A DNA stretch of 43,035 bases from a virus (taxonomy: Duplodnaviria > Heunggongvirae > Uroviricota > Caudoviricetes), in the IMG/VR virus record IMGVR_UViG_2541047789_000007, positions 1-43,035 of that record. The stretch is one strand, 5' to 3'. The position numbers were made by a program, and so were the translations under genes. The notes under the pieces are model-generated. The model saw nothing but the letters and a program-made list of their open reading frames with translations, had not been told where the DNA came from and ran no database searches. Below are positions 18,638-37,195 of the stretch, piece after piece (the first letter of the stretch is position 1; each line of letters starts with the position of its first letter).

Positions 18638-19764
18638 CAATCAGGAAACACCGCCAGGGCGAAACGATCAATATAACTTTCACCTACAAAGGAGTTAAAT
18701 GTCGTGAGCCTCTTTCCAATCTGGAAGTAACACCAAAGAACATTAAATACGCCGAGCGCACACTCGGCGAAATCCATAATAAGATCGAAAGGGGAACATT
18801 CATTTATGCGGAATATTTTCCCCGTTCTGCTCGTTTGAAAATTTTTGGTAATGCGGCTGCAGGCAAAACGGTAAAAATGTACCTGGACGAATACCTTGAA
18901 ATCTGCGAAACGAGAAAACTTTCACCCTCTACGATTGGTGGTTATAAAAAATGCCGTAGTGCGTTAGCCTCACTCCACATTTGCTCTGCAAGTGAATTAA
19001 CACCAGCAATCCTGAAAGCGTGGATTCAAAGCCAGAAAACGACCTTAAAAACAATTCGCAACCAGTTATCTTTCCTGCGGTCAGCACTTGATGAAGCCGT
19101 AACCGATGGAGTACTTCAAATTAACCCCGTATCGTTGGTAACTGCTTCGCGCTACCAAAGTGGTAAGTCAGAAGCAGAAAGCAGCTACGTGGTTGATCCG
19201 CTATCACCAGCAGAAGTTGATGTATTACTAGCAGCAGCCGGAAACAAACAATGGGAGAATCTGTTCCGGTTCGCTATACATACAGGCCTGCGTAGTTCTG
19301 AATTATGTGCCCTTCGATGGCGTGATATCGACTTTGTTGGAAAAACAGCCCATGTTCAGAGCGCTAGTGTTGTCGGAGTTATCAAAGGAACAAAGACAAA
19401 AGCCGGTACCCGTAAAGTTGAACTGACTGAAGAAGCAATGTTGGCGCTGATAAATCAGAAGCCATTTACATTCATGAAGGATGCTACTGTCTTTGAAGAT
19501 CCAAAGACCAATAAGCCATGGGCAAGTGCTGATGCAATCAGAAAAAAAGCATGGGTGCCAACATTGCGAAAAGCAGGTATTCGTTACAGAAATCCATATC
19601 AAACTAGGCATACATTCGCCACCCGCCATATCAGCCGGGGAGCAAACCTGTTTTGGCTTGCAGCTCAAATGGGGCATAAAGGACCGGAGATGCTTTTCAG
19701 GCACTATGGCTCATATCTGAAGGAATATGATGGACAAACAAGCTTGAAGAAGATAACAATATAA
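18598..19764 (+). CDS. Tyrosine integrase (lambda-type)
   Basis: 388 aa; catalytic R...HxxR...Y (TGLRSSEL, RHTFATRHI, LFRHYGSY). Confidence 0.9.
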   Translation: MGQTKLLKLPRGVTIRKHRQGETINITFTYKGVKCREPLSNLEVTPKNIKYAERTLGEIHNKIERGTFIYAEYFPRSARLKIFGNAAAGKTVKMYLDEYLEICETRKLSPSTIGGYKKCRSALASLHICSASELTPAILKAWIQSQKTTLKTIRNQLSFLRSALDEAVTDGVLQINPVSLVTASRYQSGKSEAESSYVVDPLSPAEVDVLLAAAGNKQWENLFRFAIHTGLRSSELCALRWRDIDFVGKTAHVQSASVVGVIKGTKTKAGTRKVELTEEAMLALINQKPFTFMKDATVFEDPKTNKPWASADAIRKKAWVPTLRKAGIRYRNPYQTRHTFATRHISRGANLFWLAAQMGHKGPEMLFRHYGSYLKEYDGQTSLKKITI

Positions 19765-19778
19765 TCCAAGCATGAAAC

Positions 19779-19805
19779 TATTGGCCACAATTTGTGGCCA
19801 TTTTA
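19779..19805 (+). terminator. Hairpin terminator after int
   Basis: TGGCCAC-aattt-GTGGCCA followed by TTTTA. Confidence 0.45.
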
Positions 19806-19822
19806 CGGAGCAAGATACAAAC

Positions 19823-21556
19823 ATGGCAAATCAAATTACCAAACTAAAAAATATAAATGTTGTGAAGTTTCGCGGACTGAAAAATATAAACATCGAGTTT
19901 GGTTCTCGCCTAACTGTTATTTGTGGTAAAAATGGCACATCTAAATCCACAATTCTTGGCATTATCGCCCAAATATTTAGCTTTACAAAGGACTTTACCA
20001 AAAACCCTGAGACTGATTTAACACAATATAAAACATTAACAAATGGCAGCTTCAAGTCAGCTTTCAGCGAACATTTTAGGCTTTCAGAACAATTTGATGT
20101 TCCTGGTTCAATGGACGTCAAAATTAGTGTCTATGATGGTGCATCGAACAAACATCTTGAAAAACTAACATTAGGTTTATACAGCTACAGTGACAGAGAT
20201 AAATCAAGGCCTGTAGTCAGGGGAAATGATTCAATACCGGAAAAAAACCAAAGTAGAAACGTTACTCATCCTGTTATTTTTTTAAGCTTAGCACGACTTC
20301 TTCCTATTACATTAAGGACTAATTACTCAACACGGGATGTTCAGTACATCAATGAAAATTCTGATGAAATCAGAATGATGAGTAACCAACTCTTACTAAA
20401 AAACAATGGAAGCTCAGTAACAGCAACAAAAGGTACTATCGATTCAATGGTTGTCCATGGTGACAATTATGATCACCAATCAGTATCTGTTGGTGAAGAT
20501 AATGTTGGACAATTAATCCAAGCAATTTTTTCATTTAAAAGATTGAAGGAAACTTATTCTGATTATCATGGCGGAATATTGTTAATTGATGAAGCCGATG
20601 CAGGTCTTTTCCCTGCTGCACAGTTAGAGCTAATTAATATTCTAACTAAAGCAGCAAAACAATACGATCTGCAAATAATCATGACCTCGCACTCTCCATT
20701 AATAATAGAGGATATCTATAATCGTTCAAAACAAGATAGTGATAGCTTTAAAACAATATATCTTACAGACACATATGGAGATATTAAAACAAAGAATAAT
20801 CTTTCATGGACAGATATCCACGCTGATTTACATGTTGAAACTGTAAAAATTAATGATGACATTTGTCTTCCAAAAGCAAATGTATATTTTGAAGACAAAG
20901 AAGGTTTCGACTTTTTCAAACAATTGATAACAGATCGAAAAATAAATAAAATATTAAATCCATTAGGGAATATAAATATTAGCTGCTCTGCCATGCTTGA
21001 CTTAATGGCAAGAAAAATACCAGAATTTACAGCTAAAAGCTTGATCGTCTTAGACGGTGATGTTGTTCACGACAACAGTGCTAATGCAAAAAAAGCCAAA
21101 AAAGAAAAAAACTTATGTTTGCTTCCAAGCACCTTACCTCCAGACCAAATGATTTTTGAGTTTTTATATAATTTACCACCTGATGATGCATATTGGGAAA
21201 ATAAAAATAAATTTACAAAATCTGTTTTTATGAAAACAGCTAAAGACATAATTACAACGCTAAAGATTGGTAACGCTCCGATTGATTTAAAAATCCTTAT
21301 AGATAATTATAAAAAAGTTAACAAAAATCATGGCGGGAGAGTGAGAAAACTGTTTAAAGATTTTGCACATACGACTCAATTTCAGGACCAAGTCAAAGGA
21401 CGAGTTAAAGATAACCCATATCGATATTGGGTCGAGAAAAATCCTGTGCAATCGGATAGCTTCAAGAATGAACTAATAAAGAGTCTTAAAGTTATTATGA
21501 TAAGTGGACATGGTGTCGATTCTGCTACCATCTCATCATATCTGTCAGATAACTAA
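19823..21556 (+). CDS. OLD-like ABC-type ATPase with C-terminal TOPRIM-like region (candidate anti-phage nuclease)
   Basis: Walker A GKNGTSKST, Walker B LLIDEADAGL, TSHSP; C-terminal acidic motifs YFEDKEG and IVLDGD; AT-rich; start trimmed to MANQITK. Confidence 0.55.
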   Translation: MANQITKLKNINVVKFRGLKNINIEFGSRLTVICGKNGTSKSTILGIIAQIFSFTKDFTKNPETDLTQYKTLTNGSFKSAFSEHFRLSEQFDVPGSMDVKISVYDGASNKHLEKLTLGLYSYSDRDKSRPVVRGNDSIPEKNQSRNVTHPVIFLSLARLLPITLRTNYSTRDVQYINENSDEIRMMSNQLLLKNNGSSVTATKGTIDSMVVHGDNYDHQSVSVGEDNVGQLIQAIFSFKRLKETYSDYHGGILLIDEADAGLFPAAQLELINILTKAAKQYDLQIIMTSHSPLIIEDIYNRSKQDSDSFKTIYLTDTYGDIKTKNNLSWTDIHADLHVETVKINDDICLPKANVYFEDKEGFDFFKQLITDRKINKILNPLGNINISCSAMLDLMARKIPEFTAKSLIVLDGDVVHDNSANAKKAKKEKNLCLLPSTLPPDQMIFEFLYNLPPDDAYWENKNKFTKSVFMKTAKDIITTLKIGNAPIDLKILIDNYKKVNKNHGGRVRKLFKDFAHTTQFQDQVKGRVKDNPYRYWVEKNPVQSDSFKNELIKSLKVIMISGHGVDSATISSYLSDN

Positions 21557-21567
21557 TTGATTAAAAA

Positions 21568-21601
21568 GGGTTTTATGTGATGGCCATAAAGCCCTTTTTT
21601 T
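21568..21601 (+). terminator. Rho-independent terminator between OLD-like gene and Dam-like gene
   Basis: GGGTTTTATG-tgatggc-CATAAAGCCC followed by T7. Confidence 0.6.
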
Positions 21602-21635
21602 GATATACTTTAGATCTGACATTTAGAGGTATCAT

Positions 21636-22535
21636 ATGCGTTTTAACACCCCACTTCGCTATCCTGGCGGTAAAGGCAAGCTTGCAAATTTCATGCTTCG
21701 GATTATTGAAGAAAATAATCTTTCGCCTATACATTATGCCGAACCATATGCTGGGGGTGCTGGTTTAGCATTGAAACTGTTACATCTAAATGCAGCTGAA
21801 AAAATCATCCTTAATGATATTAATATTTCTGTTTATGCTTTTTGGCACAGTGTATTAAATCATGCAGATCAATTATGTTCTTTAATTGAAAGAACAGAAG
21901 TTACAATGGATGAATGGTTTAGGCAGAAAGATATAATTAATAATCCTAAAGACCATGATCTTTTAACAATTGGTTTCTCAACCTTTTTTCTCAATAGAAC
22001 AAATCGTTCTGGAATATTAAAAGGTGGTGTAATTGGCGGTAAAAATCAAGAAGGGAAATGGAAGCTTGACGCTCGCTATAATAAGAGTGATTTGATTTCT
22101 CGAATCCATAGAATATCAGAAAATCGTCACAGAATAGATTTATATAACATGGATGCAATTGATTTCATAAAAAAAATAGTTATTCAATTGCCACAAAACT
22201 CATTAACATATTTGGATCCACCTTATTACATAAAAGGTAAAGGCTTATATATCAACCATTATGATCATGATGATCATGTTAGGGTTGCAAAAGTCGTACA
22301 GAATAATATTAAAACGCCTTGGATTGTTTCTTACGATAACACTCCTGAGATCCAAGCTATGTATAAGACATCCTCATTAGTATATGGAATAAACTACAGT
22401 GCTCAAGATCGGTACAAAGGATCTGAGGTAATGTTCTTCAGTGAACGATTGAAAATCTTTAAAACAGATGATCCAACTAAGGTAAAAGCGCCTGTATTTA
22501 AAAGAGGATGTGTTGACGACCACATCCAGACATAA
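21636..22535 (+). CDS. Dam-family N6-adenine DNA methyltransferase (D12 class)
   Basis: Motifs RYPGGKGK, AEPYAGGAGL (FxGxG) and LDPPYY; 299 aa; AT-rich. Confidence 0.8.
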   Translation: MRFNTPLRYPGGKGKLANFMLRIIEENNLSPIHYAEPYAGGAGLALKLLHLNAAEKIILNDINISVYAFWHSVLNHADQLCSLIERTEVTMDEWFRQKDIINNPKDHDLLTIGFSTFFLNRTNRSGILKGGVIGGKNQEGKWKLDARYNKSDLISRIHRISENRHRIDLYNMDAIDFIKKIVIQLPQNSLTYLDPPYYIKGKGLYINHYDHDDHVRVAKVVQNNIKTPWIVSYDNTPEIQAMYKTSSLVYGINYSAQDRYKGSEVMFFSERLKIFKTDDPTKVKAPVFKRGCVDDHIQT

Positions 22536-22606: not shown

Positions 22607-22640
22607 ACGGACTCGGGTTCAACTCCCGCCAGCTCCACCA
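22607..22640 (+). other. ssrA: ssrA (tmRNA) 3'-end fragment ending CCA: att core shared by the two elements
   Basis: CGGACtCGGGTTCAACTCCCGCCAGCTCCACCA has a tRNA-like T-arm plus acceptor 3' strand and CCA and matches the recalled E. coli ssrA 3' end; upstream sequence is unrelated AT-rich prophage DNA. Confidence 0.6.
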
Positions 22641-24126: not shown

Positions 24127-24721
24127 ATCCAAATTCACATAAAAATTACTACAACTGACCATTTCTTTTTTTTCTGCTTACAGTGTCTTCGAAAGCCTGC
24201 TTCACACTTTCAACATTTGTAGACCACGATTTTAAAATAGTATCGGCTAAGGCTTCCTGACTGGTTGTTGGCATTCGATATTTTTTATCGTGCTTATTAA
24301 TATTCAATTTTGACTCCTCTATAAATAGCCACAAAGGTTCAATGAGAACATTCACCGCTGCAGCTTTACTTCTCCATCCTTCTTCAGGAGACAAATCATT
24401 TATAAGTTCCACCAGTTTTTCCTGAATAGGTCGATACATTTCAGATTTTTTTATCCCACCTTTCCTTCCTGATCTATTCCTGATAGATAAAAGTTTAGTT
24501 TGCTTATCTACTGAGATCTTATACCAAACCATCCCCATGCTTTTATCAAATAACTCAGATGCTTTTTTAAATGCTTCAAATGCAACATCCTCGTTGTCTG
24601 ATATAACTAATTCACCCCATTTATAGCACTTCAGTGCATACTTAAGGTGAAATTTAAAAAGCTCATCCATAGAGATATATTCAGGGATAATGACAGCAAC
24701 ATTATCGGTAATGACTCCAAC

Positions 24722-25225
24722 TTATTGATAGTGTTTTATGTTCAGATAATGCCCGATGACTTTGTCATGCAGCTCCACCGATTTTGAAAACGACAGCGAC
24801 TTCCGTCCCAGCCGTGCCAGGTGCTGCCTCAGATTCAGGTTATGCCGCTCAATTCGCTGCGTATATCGCTTGCTGATTACGTGCAGCTTTCCCTTCAGGC
24901 GGGATTCATACAGCGGCCAGCCATCCGTCATCCATATCACCACGTCAAAGGGTGACAGCAGGCTCATAAGACGCCCCAGCGTCGCCATAGTGCGTTCACC
25001 GAATACGTGCGCAACAACCGTCTTCCGGAGACTGTCATACGCGTAAAACAGCCAGCGCTGGCGCGATTTAGCCCCGACATAGCCCCACTGTTCGTCCATT
25101 TCCGCGCAGACGATGACGTCACTGCCCGGCTGTATGCGCGAGGTTACCGACTGCGGCCTGAGTTTTTTAAGTGACGTAAAATCGTGTTGAGGCCAACGCC
25201 CATAATGCGGGCAGTTGCCCGGCAT
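24722..25225 (-). CDS. insB: IS1 transposase InsB
   Basis: 167-aa ORF starting [16 protein letters not shown]. Confidence 0.9.
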
Positions 25226-25419
25226 CCAACGCCATTCATGGCCATATCAATGATTTTCTGGTGCGTACCGGGTTGAGAAGCGGTGTAAGTGAACTGCAGT
25301 TGCCATGTTTTACGGCAGTGAGAGCAGAGATAGCGCTGATGTCCGGCGGTGCTTTTGCCGTTACGCACCACCCCGTCAGTAGCTGAACAGGAGGGACAGC
25401 TGATAGAAACAGAAGCCAC
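25144..25419 (-). CDS. insA: IS1 InsA
   Basis: 91-aa ORF starting [32 protein letters not shown]. Confidence 0.9.
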
Positions 25420-25932
25420 TGGAGCACCTCAAAAACACCATCATACACTAAATCAGTAAGTTGGCAGCATCACCAACATTATCTCTCAGAAGTTCTGCCT
25501 CCAATGTACTCCAATAACGTTCAATAAGCTTAGCTAACTCGATGCTTTTCTCATTTGATGGAAAGTCCTTATGAGAGTCAGTGTACCTATGCTCCTTCAA
25601 ATAAGATGATGAATACAATAATATTCCGGGACCAAACTTCTTGGAGTTCCAGACCCGCTCTTTCATCATAGTCAACTCAGCCTGCATATCTGTATGCTTT
25701 TCATCCAGAACTTGGGCGTACATGCTCCATTCACAGTCCTTCATCTCACTGGAGAGAGCACTGCATTTTCGACTAATTTCTTCACTAAAAATTTTAAGAG
25801 AAAACATTTATCTTCACAATATCAACAAGTTAAACCCGTTAAAAATAAACCTTTGCTAGCCGTATTTTTTCGAAGAATCCTTGCAGCTATTCTTTGCTGG
25901 AACCAAACTGAGCTAACAAGAGGCAAACTAGT

Positions 25933-28731: not shown

Positions 28732-28767
28732 CCTCAGTACCCTGCTACAACCTGCTACATGTAGCAG
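28732..28767. repeat. Perfect 36-bp palindrome
   Basis: CTGCTACAACCTGCTACAT|GTAGCAGGTTGTAGCAG: 18 perfectly paired positions each side of centre. Confidence 0.85.
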
Positions 28768-29059
28768 GTTGTAGCAGCCTTAAGAGATCAGGGCGCATAT
28801 TTTTGGGGCTAATAAAGGGTAACTTGTTGCTGTTCCAGCTATGTTTGCTAGAAAGTATGTGGTTAAGGTCAATCATGATCCCCAGAGGTGCCTTCGCATA
28901 CATGTCAAATGTGAAATTCGCACGAGTAATTCAAAAAAGAACATGTTTTCATCGTGTTGAAACATTACGATAGAAGTATCAAGATTATTCTGAACGTTAC
29001 GAAACACAGTTGGAATTTCCACTTATCGTAATAGGATATTGGCAAAATGGAGTCGCTGA

Positions 29060-32000
29060 ATGAGTGTGTTGAGTTGGGCAATAGACCTATGCGGGAAGAT
29101 GGAAGCGTGGCTGGTTAAGCGCCAAGCAAAAGATCAACTACAGAGCGCAGAGCAGGGGTTGAGTCTGATGGAAGAAGAATTAGGTGATCGCTATGACACC
29201 TTAGCGCCGAAAACCATCAATGATGCCAGTATGCGAGAGTATTTCATTGCCCTGAAATACGCCTTGTCTCAGAAAGACGTAAGAAACATTGCCATTACAG
29301 GGAGCTATGGCGCAGGGAAAAGTACGGTTATTTCATCATTTATGAAATATCACTGCGATGATAAATACATCAATGTATCTCTTGCGGGATTCGATATGAC
29401 GGAAAATGAAACAACCGTCAGCCCAACTCACCAAGAGGTTGAACTCAGTATCCTGCAACAAATTCTTTATAAAGAGAATAGAGAGAAGCTTCCCGACTCA
29501 AGGATAGACAGAATAATCGACAGGGGCCCTCACTATGTCAGAGGAACTTATCGAGCCTTACTTAAAGTCATTACCCCCATCGCGGTAGCCGCATTTATTA
29601 TCTATTTCAAAACAATTGCAGAGTTTCTAAGCCTTCCGCCATCCTGGATCGAGGTATTTAATGCACACTACATCATAAAAGGCTTTATATTAGTTTCGCT
29701 GGCTTTTACCGCGCTGTACTTTATAACTGCCAGCGCATCTCGAATCGGTATTTTTGATAAGAAACTCAAGCTGAGCAAGATCGCGCTTTTAAGCGGGGAT
29801 GTTGAGGCAAGCGAGCAAGAGACACCATCCTTATTGAATAATTGCCTTGACGAGATCGTGTATTTTTTCACCAAGCTGAAATATAAGGTAGTCATCTTTG
29901 AAGATCTTGACAGGTTAGGGACGCCTGAGATTTTCGTTAAGTTGCGTGAAATTAACAAAATAGTTAACAATAATATTGTCGATGGCAGTCCGGTCAGGTT
30001 TGTTTATGCGGTAAGAGATGACCTATTCCTGGGCGCTGATGCCAGAACTAAATTCTTTGATTTCATTCTCCCTGTCATTCCATTTATGGACAGCAGAAAC
30101 GCGTTTACCTTATTAAAAAGGAAAATGTTACTCAATACGCATAACGATACATATTTGAAAGACATTTCTGTACATATAAATGATATGCGCAGCCTGCAGA
30201 ATTTGGTCAATGAGTACCATGTATTCAGTAATATCGTTGATAACGGCAACGACAAAATCAAACTGTTATCGCTGGTATTTTATAAAAATATCTATGCATT
30301 AGACTACTACCTTACCGATAAGAAAACAGGGGTTTTATATTCATTTATTCGCGACTATCGCACCCGAAAACTTCACCATAATCATTTTGACTCTCTGGAA
30401 ACAAAACTGGATCTTTTACAGGCCGAAATAGAACATCTTAATTATGAGCCTATGTATGACCATAGGGGAATTAGAGAGGAAATAGTTTGTCGATATATTC
30501 CTAAGATACTCTGGGATGGCGTTCATTTTGGTACGGGAAATGGATACAGTAATTTTTATCCTTTAGGAACTTTGGCTTTAATTGATGATGAAAATAGTTT
30601 TTTGGAGTTTTTATCGCAAAAGGAAAACTTATATATAGGCTACTTTGTTAGTCATCAGGGGCATTCACTTTCACTTTTTGATAGAGCATTAAGAGAACAA
30701 CTAAAAGAAGAATACCTGAAACGAAAAACGAAAATGGGTAAAGATAAAAACTCGGCTTTTAGTGAACTGCAAATAAAAATAAAGAAAATTAAAGAGTCAA
30801 TAAAATTAAAAAACACCCTTTCGCTGCGAGAACTTACGCTAATAATCGGGCGTGAGAAATTTGCAGAGATTGCGCAGGGGTATCTTGAGGCGATGGAGGG
30901 GCATGACTTCGTTTCTAAGCAGCAGCTCCATGCTTTGTGTGCTGATATGCGCAATGGCGGTTTAGACGCCTTATATCTGCTGCTGTCCGATGGTCTGGTG
31001 ATGCAAGACTTCATGGCCTACCGCTCTATTTTCCATGAAGGATCGATGACCGTAAATGATAACGACTTTTTGAAAGCCGTCGGTCAGGATCTGAGCTACG
31101 CAACCTCAAACGGTGAATATTTTATCGATGACGAGAACAGAGTCATCAGCGAATTGGTTGAACATAACCGTATTTATGCCGATGGCGCGCTTCATCATCA
31201 ACTGGTGACTCATTTGATTGATAACGCGGACGAACATCTGGCGGGCATGTTCGCTTCGCTATTCAGTCAGTCTGATGAACACATCCTTGCTGTTTTCTCT
31301 GAGCTTTATACACGATTTGGCAAACCCGAAACCTTCGATAAGTTAATCGTTACCGCGCTGCAAAAAAATGGTTATCTTGACAGAATGGTTGCCGTTCTCG
31401 CGGGACAGCTGGGTGAAAAATTCACCAACGATATTGCTATCAGCGTGATAGCCTGCGTATCACCTGCACATGCGCAAGATAAACTGCAATACCGCCAGCT
31501 TATTCATTCGCTGGGGTGCCGTATCATCTCTCAGCTCACCGAAGAAAATCAGGAAGCGTTTATGCGTCATGTACAACAGGCGGATGCACGCTATGACGAG
31601 CTGTTCGAACCAATAACGCCAACGGAGCGGTATTGCCTACAGTTTACTGCACAAAACAGCCTTTATCAGTTAACTCGACACAATGTTGGCATTGCCGTTT
31701 CATGTCTTATTGACAACATAACGCCTGAAGAGGCGGAAAGGAAACCCTGGACACTCGCCTATGAACATGAACTCAGCACGGTTTCTGACTACTTCAGTCA
31801 AAACATTGATATATTCGTCAGGGATGTGTTTATCTACTCCGCTGAGGATGGCGACTGTATCCGCTACGTTCTGACCCGTACCTCTCTAAGCGACGATTCC
31901 AAAGGCGATGTCGTCAGAAACATGACCTTCTCGTTTTCCGACCTGTCCGGGATATTGGCTAAAGCAGTATTTACCGAAGACCAGCTAACGATTTCCTATC

Positions 32001-32899
32001 ACGACCTGTTTTACCGATATGACCGCGTCGCACCGGGATGGGGGGCGCTGATAGACTATATCTGTGAAGATTGCGACATGGAGATACTGACGGCTTATGT
32101 GACAAAGCATGCGCCTGTATTGGGGCAATCATCCCCGGAAGTTTATGATGGCGACCGCTATGACCTGCTGTATATGAAAATTATCTGCAATGATGACCTA
32201 GAAGAACAGGTTTATCAGAGCCTAGTTGCACCGATTGAGATTAACATGCGGGAAATTGATGAGCGGCTTAGCGCGCGTCATTTCTGCACCCTGGTTGCCA
32301 TGCAGAAGCTGCCTCTCGACGCGGATGTGTATGAAAAAATTGCGGCTCAATATGCGGTTCAAGATGAAAATATAAGTGATGCCTTCGTCTATTGGTTCAG
32401 CCAGTACAAAAGTGAGTTTTTGACGCAGCCCGAATTCTATCTAAGAAAAGAAAAAGACGCGCGCTTCTTTAATGTCATGCTCACAAAAATCATAACCTAC
32501 GCGCACTTTACCGTGCAAGAGAGAGCGGACCTGGTGTCGCTATTCATTGATTATTTCATTGCGTCTGATATCGCTGACCTTAATTACCCTCATGATGTCC
32601 TGCTGCAGGTGTTTAACAGTACCAATAATGAAGAATTCAAGGTCATGCTGTTTACGCGATTTATTGTGACAGGCCTGAATAAACATCAACTGGCCGGGCT
32701 ATGTCATCAACTGGGCGAAGACGAATTGAGTAATGTATTCATCAATCGAACCCAGGCAACAATTGCTGTTATAAACAGGGAACGCGTGATATCAATTCTT
32801 GAACATCTGCAAGCAGTACGCATCATAAGAGGTTTTCAGGAGCGTGAAAGTGGGAAAATCTCCGTCTTTATCGAACCCGATCTGGAGGATAAAGATTAG
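29060..32899 (+). CDS. Giant KAP/YobI-type P-loop NTPase with transmembrane insertion (1279 aa)
   Basis: Walker A ITGSYGAGKST, then two hydrophobic helices, then Walker B KVVIFEDLDRLG; about 900-aa C-terminal region without recognisable motifs. Confidence 0.6.
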   Translation: MSVLSWAIDLCGKMEAWLVKRQAKDQLQSAEQGLSLMEEELGDRYDTLAPKTINDASMREYFIALKYALSQKDVRNIAITGSYGAGKSTVISSFMKYHCDDKYINVSLAGFDMTENETTVSPTHQEVELSILQQILYKENREKLPDSRIDRIIDRGPHYVRGTYRALLKVITPIAVAAFIIYFKTIAEFLSLPPSWIEVFNAHYIIKGFILVSLAFTALYFITASASRIGIFDKKLKLSKIALLSGDVEASEQETPSLLNNCLDEIVYFFTKLKYKVVIFEDLDRLGTPEIFVKLREINKIVNNNIVDGSPVRFVYAVRDDLFLGADARTKFFDFILPVIPFMDSRNAFTLLKRKMLLNTHNDTYLKDISVHINDMRSLQNLVNEYHVFSNIVDNGNDKIKLLSLVFYKNIYALDYYLTDKKTGVLYSFIRDYRTRKLHHNHFDSLETKLDLLQAEIEHLNYEPMYDHRGIREEIVCRYIPKILWDGVHFGTGNGYSNFYPLGTLALIDDENSFLEFLSQKENLYIGYFVSHQGHSLSLFDRALREQLKEEYLKRKTKMGKDKNSAFSELQIKIKKIKESIKLKNTLSLRELTLIIGREKFAEIAQGYLEAMEGHDFVSKQQLHALCADMRNGGLDALYLLLSDGLVMQDFMAYRSIFHEGSMTVNDNDFLKAVGQDLSYATSNGEYFIDDENRVISELVEHNRIYADGALHHQLVTHLIDNADEHLAGMFASLFSQSDEHILAVFSELYTRFGKPETFDKLIVTALQKNGYLDRMVAVLAGQLGEKFTNDIAISVIACVSPAHAQDKLQYRQLIHSLGCRIISQLTEENQEAFMRHVQQADARYDELFEPITPTERYCLQFTAQNSLYQLTRHNVGIAVSCLIDNITPEEAERKPWTLAYEHELSTVSDYFSQNIDIFVRDVFIYSAEDGDCIRYVLTRTSLSDDSKGDVVRNMTFSFSDLSGILAKAVFTEDQLTISYHDLFYRYDRVAPGWGALIDYICEDCDMEILTAYVTKHAPVLGQSSPEVYDGDRYDLLYMKIICNDDLEEQVYQSLVAPIEINMREIDERLSARHFCTLVAMQKLPLDADVYEKIAAQYAVQDENISDAFVYWFSQYKSEFLTQPEFYLRKEKDARFFNVMLTKIITYAHFTVQERADLVSLFIDYFIASDIADLNYPHDVLLQVFNSTNNEEFKVMLFTRFIVTGLNKHQLAGLCHQLGEDELSNVFINRTQATIAVINRERVISILEHLQAVRIIRGFQERESGKISVFIEPDLEDKD

Positions 32900-32925
32900 C
32901 GATTTAGCCTTTTCAGGCCGGGACC

Positions 32926-32949
32926 GGCAGGTCTCTGCCTGTTTTTGTT
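32926..32949 (+). terminator. Candidate terminator after NTPase gene
   Basis: GGCAG-gtct-CTGCC followed by TGTTTTTGTT. Confidence 0.4.
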
Positions 32950-33369
32950 AATCTGTTAACGAACTTAGATTGTCTCTATACATGTTAGATTCTTTCAGAA
33001 ATATATTGCTGAACAATCCGCTCCTGGCACGAAGCGGACCGCCTCAATAACTGAAGGTCCGCTGTGAGCGAGGACCGGACATTAGCTCTAACATTCTTTT
33101 GGGCAGAACTTTGTCAGTTATTTTGATAAATGAGCATTAAGCGGATTATCTGGGATATTGCAAAATTTTTAATCAAGTGGTCAAATTCACTCCCCCCTAT
33201 ACTGAACATCATGGATATTCTGTGCCTAACTAGGTCCGGGACAGTGACGTTTTCCTGCTCGACTGAGTCAGCCAAATGCTCCACTGTTCACTCACCAAGT
33301 AGTGAGATAATTCATAACTAGAGAATTCCGACTGCCTCAGGTATATAGTCGTGGTGTATTACCAATTAT

Positions 33370-34470
33370 TTATTTGATGTTGGACTCAAAAATCTCAACG
33401 AGTTCTTTGACTTTTTTCATGCAATCAATATTAACACACCTATATTTATCATTATATTTTATAAGTGACACTAAATATGAGCGATAACCTTTTAATTTAT
33501 TCTGTAATTGATCATCAGCATACTTAGAGTAAAAATCAAATTTATTCCCATACCTTAGGGTAAACTTCCTATGGTTTAAATAGAATACGCTCTCCATTAT
33601 ATACATTGGGGATTTTTGTTTTTTGAGCAATGCGGAAACTTTTTTCAACGGTTTAAGTTTTTTATCAGATAGCCTGATGTTACCAACAGGCTTCTCTTTG
33701 TACACATGAAAAAAGTCTTTCTTTCTTTTCCTGTTCTGTACTACATAACCGTTAAGCGATATAGTGTTCTCAGTCGCTCTCCTTTTCTTTTTTTTCAACT
33801 TGAGAGAAAGTATAGAGACGAAGATAGAAATATCCTTTTCAAATTGCTCAGAATGCAGGTACTTACTGTTATCACAAGAAAAAAGCATATCATCTGCATA
33901 ACGTGAGTAGATAATCCCTTTATCTTCACACAATTTTTGAATAAGAATATCTACTCTTCTGAATATTATGTTTGATATTACAGGGGAGGATGAAAATCCA
34001 ATAGGTAACACTTCTTTCCCACGAAAGTCTTTGTCAATATAAGTGTCACTAACCTTGTGAGTAACAGAAATATATGCAATATCTAGAGCTGAGTATTTAT
34101 TTCCATTCTTTTCATTGTTGAAGTGCTGAGCGAGTAGGCTTTTTACTTCATGCGTAGGTATTGAATGGAAGAATTTTTTGATATCCAATCGTAGGAAGTA
34201 ATATCCTTGGATATGGGGCCTTAGAAAGTCGTAATAAGATTTACCTTGAACAAAGCCGCATGCGGATGAGTTAATGGGACTTTTATCTAGAACAAACTTA
34301 GTTATTCTATCATTTATACGCTTGTGTTCAGAGTCTCTAGAAATTTCAAAAAAGTTGTCGCAACCAACTTTAAACTCTCTGACGGCAGGAGTGAAATCAT
34401 TTAGAAGATCTTCATTGCCTTTAAGAATCGCTTTCTTAAAAAAGTCATCGCTAATATTATTTTTTATCAT
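33370..34470 (-). CDS. Reverse transcriptase (retron-like / defence-associated RT)
   Basis: RT motifs: motif A LRLDIKKFFHSI, motif B LPIGFSSSPVISNIIF, motif C YADD; 366 aa; AT-rich. Confidence 0.8.
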   Translation of the reverse strand: MIKNNISDDFFKKAILKGNEDLLNDFTPAVREFKVGCDNFFEISRDSEHKRINDRITKFVLDKSPINSSACGFVQGKSYYDFLRPHIQGYYFLRLDIKKFFHSIPTHEVKSLLAQHFNNEKNGNKYSALDIAYISVTHKVSDTYIDKDFRGKEVLPIGFSSSPVISNIIFRRVDILIQKLCEDKGIIYSRYADDMLFSCDNSKYLHSEQFEKDISIFVSILSLKLKKKKRRATENTISLNGYVVQNRKRKKDFFHVYKEKPVGNIRLSDKKLKPLKKVSALLKKQKSPMYIMESVFYLNHRKFTLRYGNKFDFYSKYADDQLQNKLKGYRSYLVSLIKYNDKYRCVNIDCMKKVKELVEIFESNIK

Positions 34471-34473
34471 AGA

Positions 34474-34673
34474 GCTTCAACCCGATACAAAAGAACACCA
34501 TTACACCGTAGGTGTGTACTTCGACGCATACTAATCAGAGTGACTAGTTTAGCAGTCATTAGGACTATGCCCAAAGCTAAAAGAAGCTGGACTCCCTCAA
34601 GCAAAGAGCGGGAGAGGCAAGCTCTCAGATACTTGTCGAAACTCATATCTCCCCTCTACTATCGGGTTGAAGC
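34474..34673 (-). ncRNA. Candidate retron msr-msd non-coding RNA bracketed by 14-bp inverted repeats (a1/a2-like)
   Basis: Perfect inverted repeat GCTTCAACCCGATA (34474-34487) / TATCGGGTTGAAGC (34660-34673) enclosing about 170 nt with internal hairpins; lies between OLD gene stop and RT start. Confidence 0.4.
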
Positions 34674-36760
34674 ATACGAATGATATCATAAAACTCGGGG
34701 AAATAAACTTTAAATACTGTCCCAAATGGTTGATTTTTAGCTAAAGACTCTTTTTCAACGTATCCGACGGCATAATTTAGGAAGCTTGTAGTCCATCCAT
34801 CGGTTTTATCAAGGTATTTGTTGTGTACAGTGTTCTCTTCTAATAATTTCATTAGCATTTTTGCATGCTTGGAAGTGTATCGCAACTTGCCGCTTACCTT
34901 TCTCTTATTATTTAAAGTTTGTTTGTATGTTTCAACATTGAAGTGGCTATAGTCAGTTAATGCCATTGACTTTCCATTAAAAATGACTCTAATGTAATCA
35001 ATGAGCATATCCTCTGTAACATACTTGCTTCGTTTTATACGCTTCAATGTAGAATCAAAATTAGAATTATGTTCACTGTCTAACCATCCATATACAATTT
35101 TTGAGCTATGTTTCTGGATTAAACAACCTTCTAATGTTGTTCTATTTAGATAAATATTCTGATCAAGCAACCTGCTTTTAACAGCAGTAAATACCGACTC
35201 AAAGTCAGACTCATCTAGAAAAGTTTGAGTTGTATTATTTACTTTTACTTCTTTATTTATAACGGATAACAACGTCTCAATATTTTCTCGTTTTGTCTTG
35301 TACTTCTTGCTAAAACCCAATTTGTATTTATTAAGCTCTGATTTTAAAGTATCTGGTTTAAAGTTAAAATAGCTACCGTTTTTTTCTAGTTTTATAGATA
35401 AACTACGAGGCTCACCTTTAATTGATATTGCTTTGTCTGCATCGAATAAGAATAAGTATGGTATAGTAGAGTTTGAGTATGATGGATTAACTCGCTCACC
35501 AACGACATTGCTACTACATTTATAAACATCTATATTTCTTAAATGAGGGAAATGTTCAGTCATCTTCATGTTTCCAAAAGCTTCCAACTCACTTTCACCC
35601 TCTACAAATAGGATAAAGTCGCTAAAAAACAATCTTGCTTCATTGTCACTAAAAATATTTATAAAGCTCTCGTTGTCATAAGTGGAATTTAATATGCTAA
35701 TCGTAGTTCTAGCATCAACTTTCTTCTGAAAACAATAAACACGTTGTTTTTGCCTGAACTTTTTAATTATCTCTTTTACTATATTCGGCGAATGAGTTGT
35801 TATAAATACTTTAGGCCTAGTAACTCGATCATCTTTTTTTTCATTATAATTGTAACTAGTAAATATATCTTGGACTAGAACCTCGTTCATTTTAGGGTGT
35901 AGACCTAGCTCTGGTTCATCAATAAAAACAAATGGTGTTATATATTCTCTTCTTGAAATTGTAATTAGTATCCTAAGAAAGGTTTTTATGAAATGAAATG
36001 AATTTGTTCCATCTGAGTGAAACTTTAAATCATTTTCGTCTATCTCAAACCGATAACCTTTTAATCCAGCCTTAATATAGCTCAACACCTTTTCTTTCTG
36101 AGAACTTGGCTTCGTAGATATCGTTCTATTTAAGTCTGAAATATAATTCCTATAAGAATTATCACCACTCGAATTAATTGAATTATCAAAAAAATCAATT
36201 ACAGATTGGTCATCAATTTTAGACAGATTGAAAGACTTCACTCTTGATATAAGATCCCACAAACTGTCCCATTCATGTAAATCCATATGTCTAGGTTCAA
36301 CATGGAAAAATGGAAATAGATAAAGAATAAGGTTTAAAGTTTGTTTGTCTTTAGTTGACCACTTAACTTTACCATCGCTGTATATGTTCAGTGTCAAAGT
36401 ATAAGTGGTGTAATCATTATCGTAGCGCGTTAATGCAAATATGCTTCGTTTATGGAGAGGAACCAATTTTCGGATGATAAAATCAAAATACTTATTTTTA
36501 GGTTGATTCCTGGCTATCCTATAAATTCTGGTCATATCATAAGTTACTGATATAGAACCTTTATACGAATAATTAGAGTTTAGCTTTGGCGGTAACTCTT
36601 CTTTGCCTTCTAGTTTATTGTAGAAGAATTTAAGAACTTTAAGTAAGTTAGACTTTCCAACGTTATTGCGACCGACAATGCAGTTTAAGTCGTTTAAGTT
36701 ATCAACATTTAGCTCATCGAATGATAACAAGTTGGTGATTTTTATAGCCTGTACAGTCAT
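34643..36760 (-). CDS. OLD-family ATPase/TOPRIM nuclease (705 aa)
   Basis: Walker A GRNNVGKSN, Walker B FVFIDEPELGLHP, TTHSP, TOPRIM LFVEGESELEAF and LFLFDADKA; AT-rich. Confidence 0.8.
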   Translation of the reverse strand: MTVQAIKITNLLSFDELNVDNLNDLNCIVGRNNVGKSNLLKVLKFFYNKLEGKEELPPKLNSNYSYKGSISVTYDMTRIYRIARNQPKNKYFDFIIRKLVPLHKRSIFALTRYDNDYTTYTLTLNIYSDGKVKWSTKDKQTLNLILYLFPFFHVEPRHMDLHEWDSLWDLISRVKSFNLSKIDDQSVIDFFDNSINSSGDNSYRNYISDLNRTISTKPSSQKEKVLSYIKAGLKGYRFEIDENDLKFHSDGTNSFHFIKTFLRILITISRREYITPFVFIDEPELGLHPKMNEVLVQDIFTSYNYNEKKDDRVTRPKVFITTHSPNIVKEIIKKFRQKQRVYCFQKKVDARTTISILNSTYDNESFINIFSDNEARLFFSDFILFVEGESELEAFGNMKMTEHFPHLRNIDVYKCSSNVVGERVNPSYSNSTIPYLFLFDADKAISIKGEPRSLSIKLEKNGSYFNFKPDTLKSELNKYKLGFSKKYKTKRENIETLLSVINKEVKVNNTTQTFLDESDFESVFTAVKSRLLDQNIYLNRTTLEGCLIQKHSSKIVYGWLDSEHNSNFDSTLKRIKRSKYVTEDMLIDYIRVIFNGKSMALTDYSHFNVETYKQTLNNKRKVSGKLRYTSKHAKMLMKLLEENTVHNKYLDKTDGWTTSFLNYAVGYVEKESLAKNQPFGTVFKVYFPEFYDIIRMLQPDSRGEI

Positions 36761-37143
36761 AGTGTGCCCTAGATTTTTTTCTCATTATATCAGTTGCTTA
36801 TTTAGCTTACTACTCCGATAAGATTTTTACTCAGGAAAATCAATAGGTTTCTAATACTAGCAGTCGTCCGGTCTTTGCTTCACTGAGTTTCGAATCCTTG
36901 GATATTCAACGCATCGGCAATTCCTCTCTTAACGTGATATATGCTTCTAGCCGGTGTACGCGCAACTTCGGATAACTTGAGATAAGGCAAACTAGCCTCG
37001 ATAAGATGTGAACGGGATTTTTCTCTGGATCATAACGGGGCATAAATGAGTTAGCACCGATATCCGCTTCTGGCACAGAACGGCCTATCAGCATTCTAAA
37101 AATATTCAGATATATATCATTCAACTGAACATACCCCATTATC

Positions 37144-37172
37144 GGCAGAACCTCATGGTTCTGCCGTTTTTT
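37144..37172 (+). terminator. Strong hairpin terminator immediately upstream of yfjP-like
   Basis: GGCAGAACC-tcat-GGTTCTGCC followed by GTTTTTT. Confidence 0.6.
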
Positions 37173-37195
37173 GTTTTCATTTTAGAGGAGCAGTG

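Follow-up and report, generated by a model that had tools for sequence, protein, structure and literature searches.

A chromosomal-island NTPase gene, probably an intact member of the Tmn family of single-gene anti-phage systems, lies in a bounded cassette beside retron-Eco8

The name tmn was reportedly given by Gao and colleagues in 2020. The 2026 preprint PMC13001434 credits the first report of Tmn as a defense system to Gao et al. 2020 (its reference 19), and the first description of transmembrane helices inserted in an NTPase domain, made for KAP proteins, to Aravind et al. 2004 (its reference 16). The same preprint places YobI as phylogenetically distinct from KAP. Tmn-25, from E. coli ECOR25 (Wu et al. 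2023 and 2026 preprints), forms a decameric complex in the membrane; its helical arms detect a phage protein, RIIB of T2, and this trigger induces ATP hydrolysis, Mg2+ export, and plasmolysis (PMC13001434); the Mg2+-export/plasmolysis mechanism comes from this one preprint with an 11.6 A cryo-EM map. In mutagenesis of Tmn-25, 12 mutations abolished defense and mutation of L867 selectively lost protection against T1. Clades Ia-IX of Tmn have been published, as has a tree of 785 Tmn sequences (PMC13001434), and an allele of clade Ia is among those tested, and work on the family covers phage panels and the resulting phenotypes, Walker A mutants, escape mutants, a trigger, an anti-Tmn defense-blocking protein, and low-resolution cryo-EM. 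Walker A-dependent phage resistance was reported for alleles other than the one described here.

We analyzed a window of 43,035 nucleotides, the whole of the Caudoviricetes virus record IMGVR_UViG_2541047789_000007, in which an earlier note had singled out an open reading frame of 1279 aa as a giant orphan of KAP/YobI type. The ORF was present as described, and the coordinates of its features are collected in Table 1. Its product is identical to RefSeq WP_021520969.1 (strain A0 34/86). The PADLOC Tmn model PDLC02220 matched with E=2.3e-175 and 583.6 bits, aligning residues 37-1100 with profile positions 18-1095 of 1273 and leaving the last ~180 profile positions unaligned. Pfam YobI-ATPase (PF20693) matched over its full profile (positions 1-363 of 363) with 331 bits (cutoff 27; E=1.7e-98), whereas Pfam KAP_NTPase (PF07693) reached 17.3 bits (E=0.003), below its 20-bit gathering cutoff. 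The YobI half of the proposed type was thus upheld and strict KAP membership was rejected. Membership in STAND/Avs was likewise rejected, as no STAND family was among the Pfam or PADLOC matches; a fold search limited the STAND resemblance to fold-level similarity of the P-loop core, and Pfam gave no NACHT or NB-ARC match in the protein. When the full-length sequence was searched against PDB chains, no relative was returned.

Table 1. Features of the tmn locus and the adjacent retron; positions are those of the window
Feature	Position	Strand	Remark
Tmn cassette (gene with its own conserved non-coding flanks), ~4.2 kb	28814-33041	+	88-94% nucleotide identity to four unrelated contexts
Conserved 5' non-coding region, presumed promoter/regulatory	28814-29059	+	Long invariant blocks across five loci
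tmn ORF, 1279 aa	29060-32899	+	Single ORF; PADLOC Tmn profile match
Walker A GSYGAGKST, residues 81-89	29300-29326	+	Invariant in 45 homologs; G86/K87 correspond to essential G66/K67 of Tmn-25
Predicted transmembrane helix 1, residues 166-184	29555-29611	+	Kyte-Doolittle mean 1.86; within AF2 helix 157-181
Predicted transmembrane helix 2, residues 205-223	29672-29728	+	Kyte-Doolittle mean 1.99; within AF2 helix 204-229
Walker B VVIFEDLDRLG, residues 277-287	29888-29920	+	D282/R285 correspond to essential D276/R279 of Tmn-25
Predicted proximal arm, residues ~437-643: long coiled-coil helices and small beta-containing domain	30368-30988	+	AF2 C-terminal model
Predicted distal arm, residues ~649-1228: alpha-solenoid, ~36 short helices	31004-32743	+	Presumed trigger-sensing surface
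Predicted small C-terminal alpha/beta domain, residues ~1232-1271	32753-32872	+	AF2 elements E803-806, H811-823, E827-832, E838-842 (model numbering)
Terminator-like GC hairpin followed by T-run	32920-32950	+	21 nt past stop codon; kept in 5/5 cassette copies
Retron RT type I-B	33370-34470	-	PADLOC
Retron ATPase-Toprim effector (OLD-family nuclease)	34643-36760	-	PADLOC

The gene is not an orphan. A homolog search with the 1279-aa protein returned 3,121 matches at E<=1e-5, and among the matches listed (120 of the 3,121) almost all were near full length, with 39-100% identity, across Enterobacterales. The start codon was backed by 45 homologs, in which M1 is near-invariant and the N-terminus conserved. 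Compared with four ~90%-identical copies, tmn had a dN/dS of 0.12-0.19, with purifying selection across the whole ORF and the strongest constraint on the NTPase and transmembrane core. Nothing beyond the generic P-loop and transmembrane features would favor a housekeeping membrane ATPase or transporter outside conflict. Against such a role, no NCBIfam or Pfam housekeeping family reached its cutoff (no NCBIfam model of any kind did, the top match scoring 16 bits where 181 were required), tmn was found in 8 of 5,426 complete E. coli genomes, each time on mobile DNA, and its GC content was lower than that of the core flanks; we regard housekeeping as extremely improbable. Based on the profile matches and models, the window protein is very probably an intact Tmn family member, that is, a single-gene anti-phage defense with a YobI-type P-loop NTPase. 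Since Tmn is a published defense family, the gene was correctly spotted, and correctly placed as a single-protein phage-defense NTPase carried as island cargo, and it is an already known system rather than an uncharacterized one.

Both Walker motifs read from the letters in the earlier note were found, and both were invariant in the 45 homologs. The two strongly hydrophobic helices claimed between them were also recovered. The two segments listed in Table 1 were the only ones in the protein whose Kyte-Doolittle mean over 19 residues exceeded 1.6, and the next best segment reached 1.22. Topology prediction agreed: K+R/D+E counts of 4/2 before the first helix, 0/2 in the loop, and 5/1 after the second gave a positive-inside pattern. 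The AF2 model of the N-terminal part, of only moderate quality (pLDDT 69.5), predicted an AAA+/STAND-like core with a transmembrane hairpin, and its N-terminus was a single helix with no effector domain. The hairpin between Walker A and Walker B would tether the N-terminal NTPase to the inner membrane, which would place the catalytic domain and the entire C-terminus on the cytoplasmic side.

The C-terminal two-thirds had been described as free of recognizable motifs, and the Pfam and NCBIfam scans indeed gave no domain match there. However, the region is not featureless, being conserved and under purifying selection. AF2 confidently predicted two arms in the C-terminal 850 residues, a proximal one built as a coiled coil and a distal one that is a long alpha-solenoid. 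In the proximal arm, F514, Y552, and R555 (F85, Y123, and R126 of the model, in which model residue + 429 equals the protein residue) match F506, Y541, and R544, which are essential in Tmn-25.

We compared the protein with WP_064055658.1, an IncF-plasmid protein named 'anti-phage transmembrane ATPase' in which each of the 15 residues numbered in the Tmn-25 publications is present. The clade profile of the window protein aligned with it in one collinear stretch, positions 24-1220 of 1276 (about 94%), with E=4e-206, and identity was only 26.8%. The final ~55 residues fell outside this alignment, the predicted small alpha/beta domain being the sole part left unaligned. All 13 residues affecting Tmn-25 defense were identical in the window protein: G86, K87, Y268, D282, R285, N303, K331, F332, R377, F514, Y552, R555, and L883 (in Tmn-25, in the same order, G66, K67, Y262, D276, R279, N297, K325, F326, R374, F506, Y541, R544, and L867). 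Except for L883, they were invariant in the 45 homologs. L33 and K183 of Tmn-25, reported as dispensable, were not conserved.

By homology to Tmn-25, the window protein would oligomerize in the membrane, and its helical arms would bind a protein that the phage makes early in infection, as those of Tmn-25 bind T2 RIIB. Binding would turn on ATP hydrolysis, ATP would be depleted and Mg2+ exported, and the ensuing plasmolysis would stall the development of the phage with no depolarization of the membrane. Which phages are sensed is probably determined by the arms, which evolve faster. The same family could have another output, namely abortive infection as in PifA, by depolarization, permeabilization, or another ion, instead of Mg2+ export and plasmolysis. 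The low identity to Tmn-25 leaves room for it, the related KAP protein PifA works through depolarization and leakage, and PMC13001434 suggests that other Tmn homologs may export different ions or answer different triggers. On the other hand, the catalytic and proximal-arm residues needed in Tmn-25 are all kept, and the architecture is collinear with Tmn-25, with the same minimal two-helix hairpin predicted. We consider a different output unlikely.

Four unrelated contexts of tmn were compared: a ychF-pth island of E. coli, a conjugative plasmid of Salmonella, an integrase islet of E. ludwigii, and, in Serratia, a solitary insert between core genes. The cassette ends were near-identical across these four contexts, at 28814 on the left (28873 in one locus) and at 33033-33079 on the right. 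A repeat search at the ends found no terminal repeats flanking the cassette as a unit. Upstream of the tmn ATG by 7 nt is a Shine-Dalgarno sequence, GGAG (29049-29052), and a consensus promoter scan of the upstream region gave nothing above chance. The earlier note had seen no obvious partner gene, and the neighborhood survey that it proposed bore this out, as none was conserved across eight sampled mobile contexts and the neighbors were unrelated. The alignments showed tmn in at least five unrelated mobile contexts, moving as an autonomous, sharply bounded cassette of ~4.2 kb that brings its upstream region and terminator along.

Such carriage raises the question of whether the main role lies in conflict between mobile elements, as plasmid, ICE, or satellite exclusion or element maintenance, with phage defense secondary. 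Close homologs were located on a conjugative plasmid, in its leading region, as well as within ICEs and integrase islets, and plasmid-borne Tmn is known from the leading region of F-type plasmids. Mobile carriage is nevertheless typical of defense genes, the Serratia copy stands alone between core genes, and tested family members show direct anti-phage phenotypes with phage proteins as triggers. A main role in element conflict is therefore quite unlikely, and we retain phage defense as the main role.

The retron-like module to which tmn had been reported as convergent was confirmed as a retron-Eco8 module on the opposite strand. Rfam scans of the whole window at the gathering threshold and of 32900-37300 at E<=1 found no retron ncRNA and no tmRNA, and an ARAGORN scan found no tmRNA either. 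The retron cassette spans 33052-37079. It and the Tmn cassette abut within about 10 bp and occur together in 5 E. coli genomes, as would be expected if they formed one obligate multi-gene system. However, a retron 99.5% identical to the one in the window was found without Tmn at the end of a lambdoid prophage, the Tmn cassette was found without any retron in six other contexts, and both systems are known to work alone. Because the distributions are independent, obligate coupling was rejected as largely refuted and is very unlikely; judged from these sequence distributions, the retron-Eco8 module is a cassette separate from Tmn.

Independent cassettes may still interact. ATP depletion by Tmn was reported to relieve the ATP inhibition of GajA in Gabija, the Eco8 nuclease was reported to be ATP-inhibited, and the Eco8 effector has its closest structural relative in GajA. 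By analogy, a Tmn-driven collapse of ATP may relieve inhibition of the Eco8 OLD nuclease and give layered or synergistic immunity, a proposal that we make tentatively and hold to be unlikely. If true, this would add retrons to the downstream partners of Tmn as a new class. A separate and more probable reading is that this divergent allele senses a trigger other than T2 RIIB. Since the Eco8 nuclease is reportedly inhibited by ATP, the Tmn/Eco8 pair offers a natural test of the ATP-depletion synergy model, and this possible synergy is the only open lead of the locus.

The discovery value of the gene itself is small, as PADLOC, and by report DefenseFinder, already call Tmn, and most of the checks proposed in the earlier note (structure prediction, K-to-A mutant, phage challenge, neighborhood survey) are already published for the family. 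The modest interest lies in a divergent, naturally chromosomal Tmn, whose contrast of a conserved core with divergent arms could be used to trace what determines trigger specificity, and in a sharply bounded cassette that moves between plasmids, ICEs, islets, and a CP4-57-like island.

Compared with known systems, the window protein resembles Tmn-25 most fully. Both are single genes of similar length (1279 aa versus 1273 aa) on mobile elements and without a conserved operon partner. Both have a YobI NTPase with two transmembrane helices between Walker A and Walker B (predicted in the window protein), a proximal arm built as a coiled coil, and a distal arm that is a HEAT/ARM-like alpha-solenoid (both arms modeled in the window protein). 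They differ in that the window gene is on a chromosomal CP4-57-like island next to retron-Eco8, whereas Tmn-25 is on an IncF plasmid next to Gabija/VapBC, and the extreme C-terminal alpha/beta domain of the window protein is not alignable. YobI of Bacillus subtilis is represented by PF20693; the window N-terminal domain matches this whole profile, which spans the NTPase domain only and is silent on arms or function. KAP NTPases, including PifA of the F plasmid, belong to the same broad P-loop class and are tied to membranes and phage exclusion, and PifA acts without transmembrane helices whereas the window protein has a predicted hairpin. Unlike Avs/STAND proteins, the window protein has no separate effector domain and is predicted to be membrane-embedded. 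Moreover, the Tmn sensor is HEAT/ARM-like instead of TPR, and Tmn is reported as a decamer instead of a tetramer.

The ORF stood exactly where the earlier note had placed it, and its annotated start was sound since M1 and the rest of the N-terminus were kept in an alignment of 45 homologues. Both Walker motifs were present, with two hydrophobic helices between them as claimed. The protein was not the orphan it had been called: a homologue search returned 3,121 protein matches at E<=1e-5, and among the 120 matches listed almost all were near full length, at 39-100% identity, from Enterobacter, Klebsiella, Citrobacter, Serratia, Pectobacterium, Yersinia, Providencia, Morganella, Pantoea and other genera. 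The label "KAP/YobI-type" held for YobI, with Pfam YobI-ATPase (PF20693) covering residues 61-427 over the full profile (E=1.7e-98), but not for KAP, as KAP_NTPase scored 17.3 bits against a cutoff of 20. The PADLOC "Tmn" model covered residues 37-1100 (E=2.3e-175). The window protein is a divergent allele of an already known system, Tmn. The family-level reading of a YobI-type membrane-inserted NTPase, serving as a one-protein defence and carried as island cargo, was therefore right, but "uncharacterised" was not, because Tmn has been published as a defence system with a trigger, a mechanism and a phage counter-protein reported.

Gao et al. 2020 is cited as the first introduction of Tmn (in PMC13001434 and PMC11846954). 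Tmn acts synergistically with Gabija, Septu I and PrrC (bioRxiv 10.1101/2022.08.21.504612), is counteracted by a phage anti-Tmn protein, and is escaped by phage with nmad5 mutations (PMC11846954). In a 2026 preprint (PMC13001434), Tmn is a decameric membrane complex whose cytosolic helical arms bind T2 RIIB; binding turns on ATP hydrolysis and Mg2+ export, leading to plasmolysis, and the ATP collapse activates Gabija and Septu I.

A Kyte-Doolittle scan in 19-residue windows over all 1279 aa gave only two membrane-grade segments, residues 166-184 (mean 1.86) and 205-223 (mean 1.99), both between Walker A and Walker B; the next-highest window anywhere was 1.22. K+R/D+E counts were 4/2 ahead of TM1, 0/2 in the 20-residue loop and 5/1 past TM2, obeying the positive-inside rule, which predicts an in-out-in hairpin with a cytoplasmic NTPase. 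The structure prediction that had been proposed gave two models. The model of residues 1-470 (pLDDT 69.5, core blocks 80-90) contained a five-stranded P-loop core and a long helical hairpin (helices 157-181 and 204-229) bearing both hydrophobic segments. The model of residues 430-1279 (pLDDT 84.9) comprised helical arms, and as modelled this C-terminus is the published proximal coiled-coil arm and distal HEAT/ARM-like solenoid of Tmn. A sequence search of PDB chains with the whole protein found no solved structure of a relative.

Positions of the features discussed (nt, window nucleotides; aa, residues of the window protein)
Feature	Position	Strand	Remark
S24-peptidase/HTH repressor	14115-14807 nt		in window 1-18400
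DUF2303	15938-16762 nt		in window 1-18400
Phage-type integrase	18598-19764 nt		second element
AAA_15/AAA_21 ATPase	19772-21556 nt		second element; PtuA/GajA/AriA-like matches
D12 adenine methyltransferase	21636-22535 nt		second element; PADLOC PD-Lambda-5_B, E=5e-124
Shine-Dalgarno of tmn, GGAG	29049-29052 nt		7 nt 5' of ATG
tmn ORF	29060-32899 nt	+	ATG start, 1279 aa
Walker A, GSYGAGKST	81-89 aa		
Walker B, VVIFEDLDRLG	277-287 aa		
Proximal arm	~437-643 aa		C-terminal model; long paired helices and small beta-containing domain
Distal arm	~649-1228 aa		C-terminal model; ~36 short helices, stacked solenoid
Small alpha/beta domain	~1232-1271 aa		C-terminal model
Terminator hairpin, conserved	32920-32943 nt		within Tmn cassette
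Retron RT	33370-34470 nt	-	
Retron effector	34643-36760 nt	-	704 aa

Compared with four ~90%-identical copies, dN/dS over the whole ORF was 0.12-0.19; the NTPase+TM region alone gave 0.06-0.09 and the arms 0.11-0.35. In more distant homologues, the N-terminal 470 residues were ~50% identical and the C-terminal 850 ~33%. These results suggested that the allele is probably functional and that its arms evolve faster than its conserved motor, in agreement with the published idea that the arms determine specificity (PMC13001434).

The part of the window from 22608 rightward to its end matched E. coli A0 34/86 at 99.95-99.98% identity. In that strain the island comes after ssrA and is ordered integrase, AlpA, YfjI, inovirus-Gp2/YfjJ-like protein, Tmn, retron, and then YfjP-like GTPase, DUF932, antirestriction, RadC/JAB and YeeU/CbtA genes. 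The island is a CP4-57-like element. The tmn gene occurred in 8 of 5,426 complete E. coli genomes. The Tmn cassette (28814 to ~33041), which includes a conserved 245-bp 5' region, was found again at 88-94% nucleotide identity, with almost identical boundaries, at four unrelated sites: an E. coli island adjoining ychF-pth, a conjugative plasmid of Salmonella (in its leading region), a small islet of Enterobacter ludwigii with integrase and ParM, and a solitary insert between core genes of Serratia. Remoter homologues lay in ICEs or mobilisable elements of Pectobacterium, Klebsiella and Providencia. The survey agreed with the earlier view that tmn has no obvious partner gene, as no neighbour was conserved in the sampled contexts; the same absence has been reported (PMC13001434).

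The interval that separates the YfjJ-like gene from the cassette's left end held a perfect 36-bp palindrome (28742-28777; CTGCTACAACCTGCTACA / TGTAGCAGGTTGTAGCAG), at whose last base a terminator-like site (28777-28794) starts. Compared with A0 34/86, the window alone carried a 764-bp IS1 (24707-25470; 13-bp overlap at the junctions), with its transposase at 24722-25225 (Pfam match), breaking a 293-aa hypothetical gene between integrase and alpA. Homology to the ssrA 3' end begins at 22608 (island att); ARAGORN and Rfam found no tmRNA in the window, and the ssrA gene itself falls outside it. Left of the att site, a second element of low GC (33-37%; 18598-22535) probably represents a defence pair of PD-Lambda-5 type at the end of a prophage. 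Positions 1-18400 (GC ~0.42-0.56, phage-type genes) may be a prophage; if so, they would form with the CP4-57-like island a tandem mobile-element array at ssrA.

The retron-like module was indeed convergent with tmn, matching RT type I-B (E=4.7e-93) and the ATPase-Toprim I-B effector (E=2.4e-225). The effector (704 versus 750 aa) matched the solved "Retron Eco8 OLD nuclease" (E=1.6e-112) over residues 1-560 only, and the module is of the retron-Eco8 family. Rfam matched no msr/msd ncRNA in the window; it may lie in the 172-bp gap (34471-34642) or upstream of the effector (36761-37079). The retron has its own cassette (33052-37079), and a 99.5%-identical copy lay without this Tmn at a lambdoid prophage end in E. 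coli 2022N21-074 and 2020N21-110, which indicated that Tmn and retron are independent modules set side by side. Synergy between them is a reasonable and testable idea, since the Eco8 nuclease, structurally nearest to GajA, is inhibited at >=3 mM ATP (Nat Commun 2026, PMC13402713) and the ATP collapse by Tmn activates Gabija and Septu I; with no co-occurrence signal in its favour, we consider it rather unlikely.

An imperfect inverted repeat (33017-33079; 24-nt arms, 79% complementary, 15-nt loop) sat exactly at the junction of the two cassettes. The whole repeat also ends the Tmn cassette in the ychF-pth island, and in the prophage copy of the retron cassette its right arm goes with that cassette. 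A bidirectional terminator is one possible role for the repeat, a shared recombination junction another. Retrons occurred in two of eight sampled Tmn neighbourhoods. Inside an ICE at a Providencia locus (L011, 10978-14878), downstream of the Tmn homologue P0082, a second, unrelated retron-like module was convergent with Tmn (RVT_1 reverse transcriptase, PRTase-CE/wHTH protein and HTH protein, with RadC in between).

By homology to Tmn-25, the window protein would oligomerise, bind its trigger through the arms, and deplete ATP and export Mg2+, with plasmolysis to follow; we infer these steps beyond the anatomy largely from one preprint. A tblastn search of a plasmid collection matched 646 records, nearly all of them IncF-type Tmn, which shared 27-29% identity across residues 38-1133. 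From these, WP_064055658.1 (annotated "anti-phage transmembrane ATPase") was used as the Tmn-25 proxy because it bore the expected residue at each of the 15 sites that the Tmn-25 mutagenesis named. An HMM of the clade to which the window protein belongs (116 full-length members) aligned to this Tmn-25-type protein in one collinear stretch (E=4e-206; profile positions 24-1220 of 1276, residues 16-1214 of 1273), with homology not demonstrable for the last ~55 residues only. Mutation affected Tmn-25 defence at 13 positions: at twelve it abolishes defence, and at L867 it selectively costs T1 protection (PMC13001434). Despite a global identity of 26.8% to the proxy, the window protein has the same residue at all 13 (G86, K87, Y268, D282, R285, N303, K331, F332, R377, F514, Y552, R555 and L883), the first twelve, G86 through R555, being invariant in 45-sequence alignments, whereas the reportedly dispensable Tmn-25 positions L33 and K183 were not conserved.
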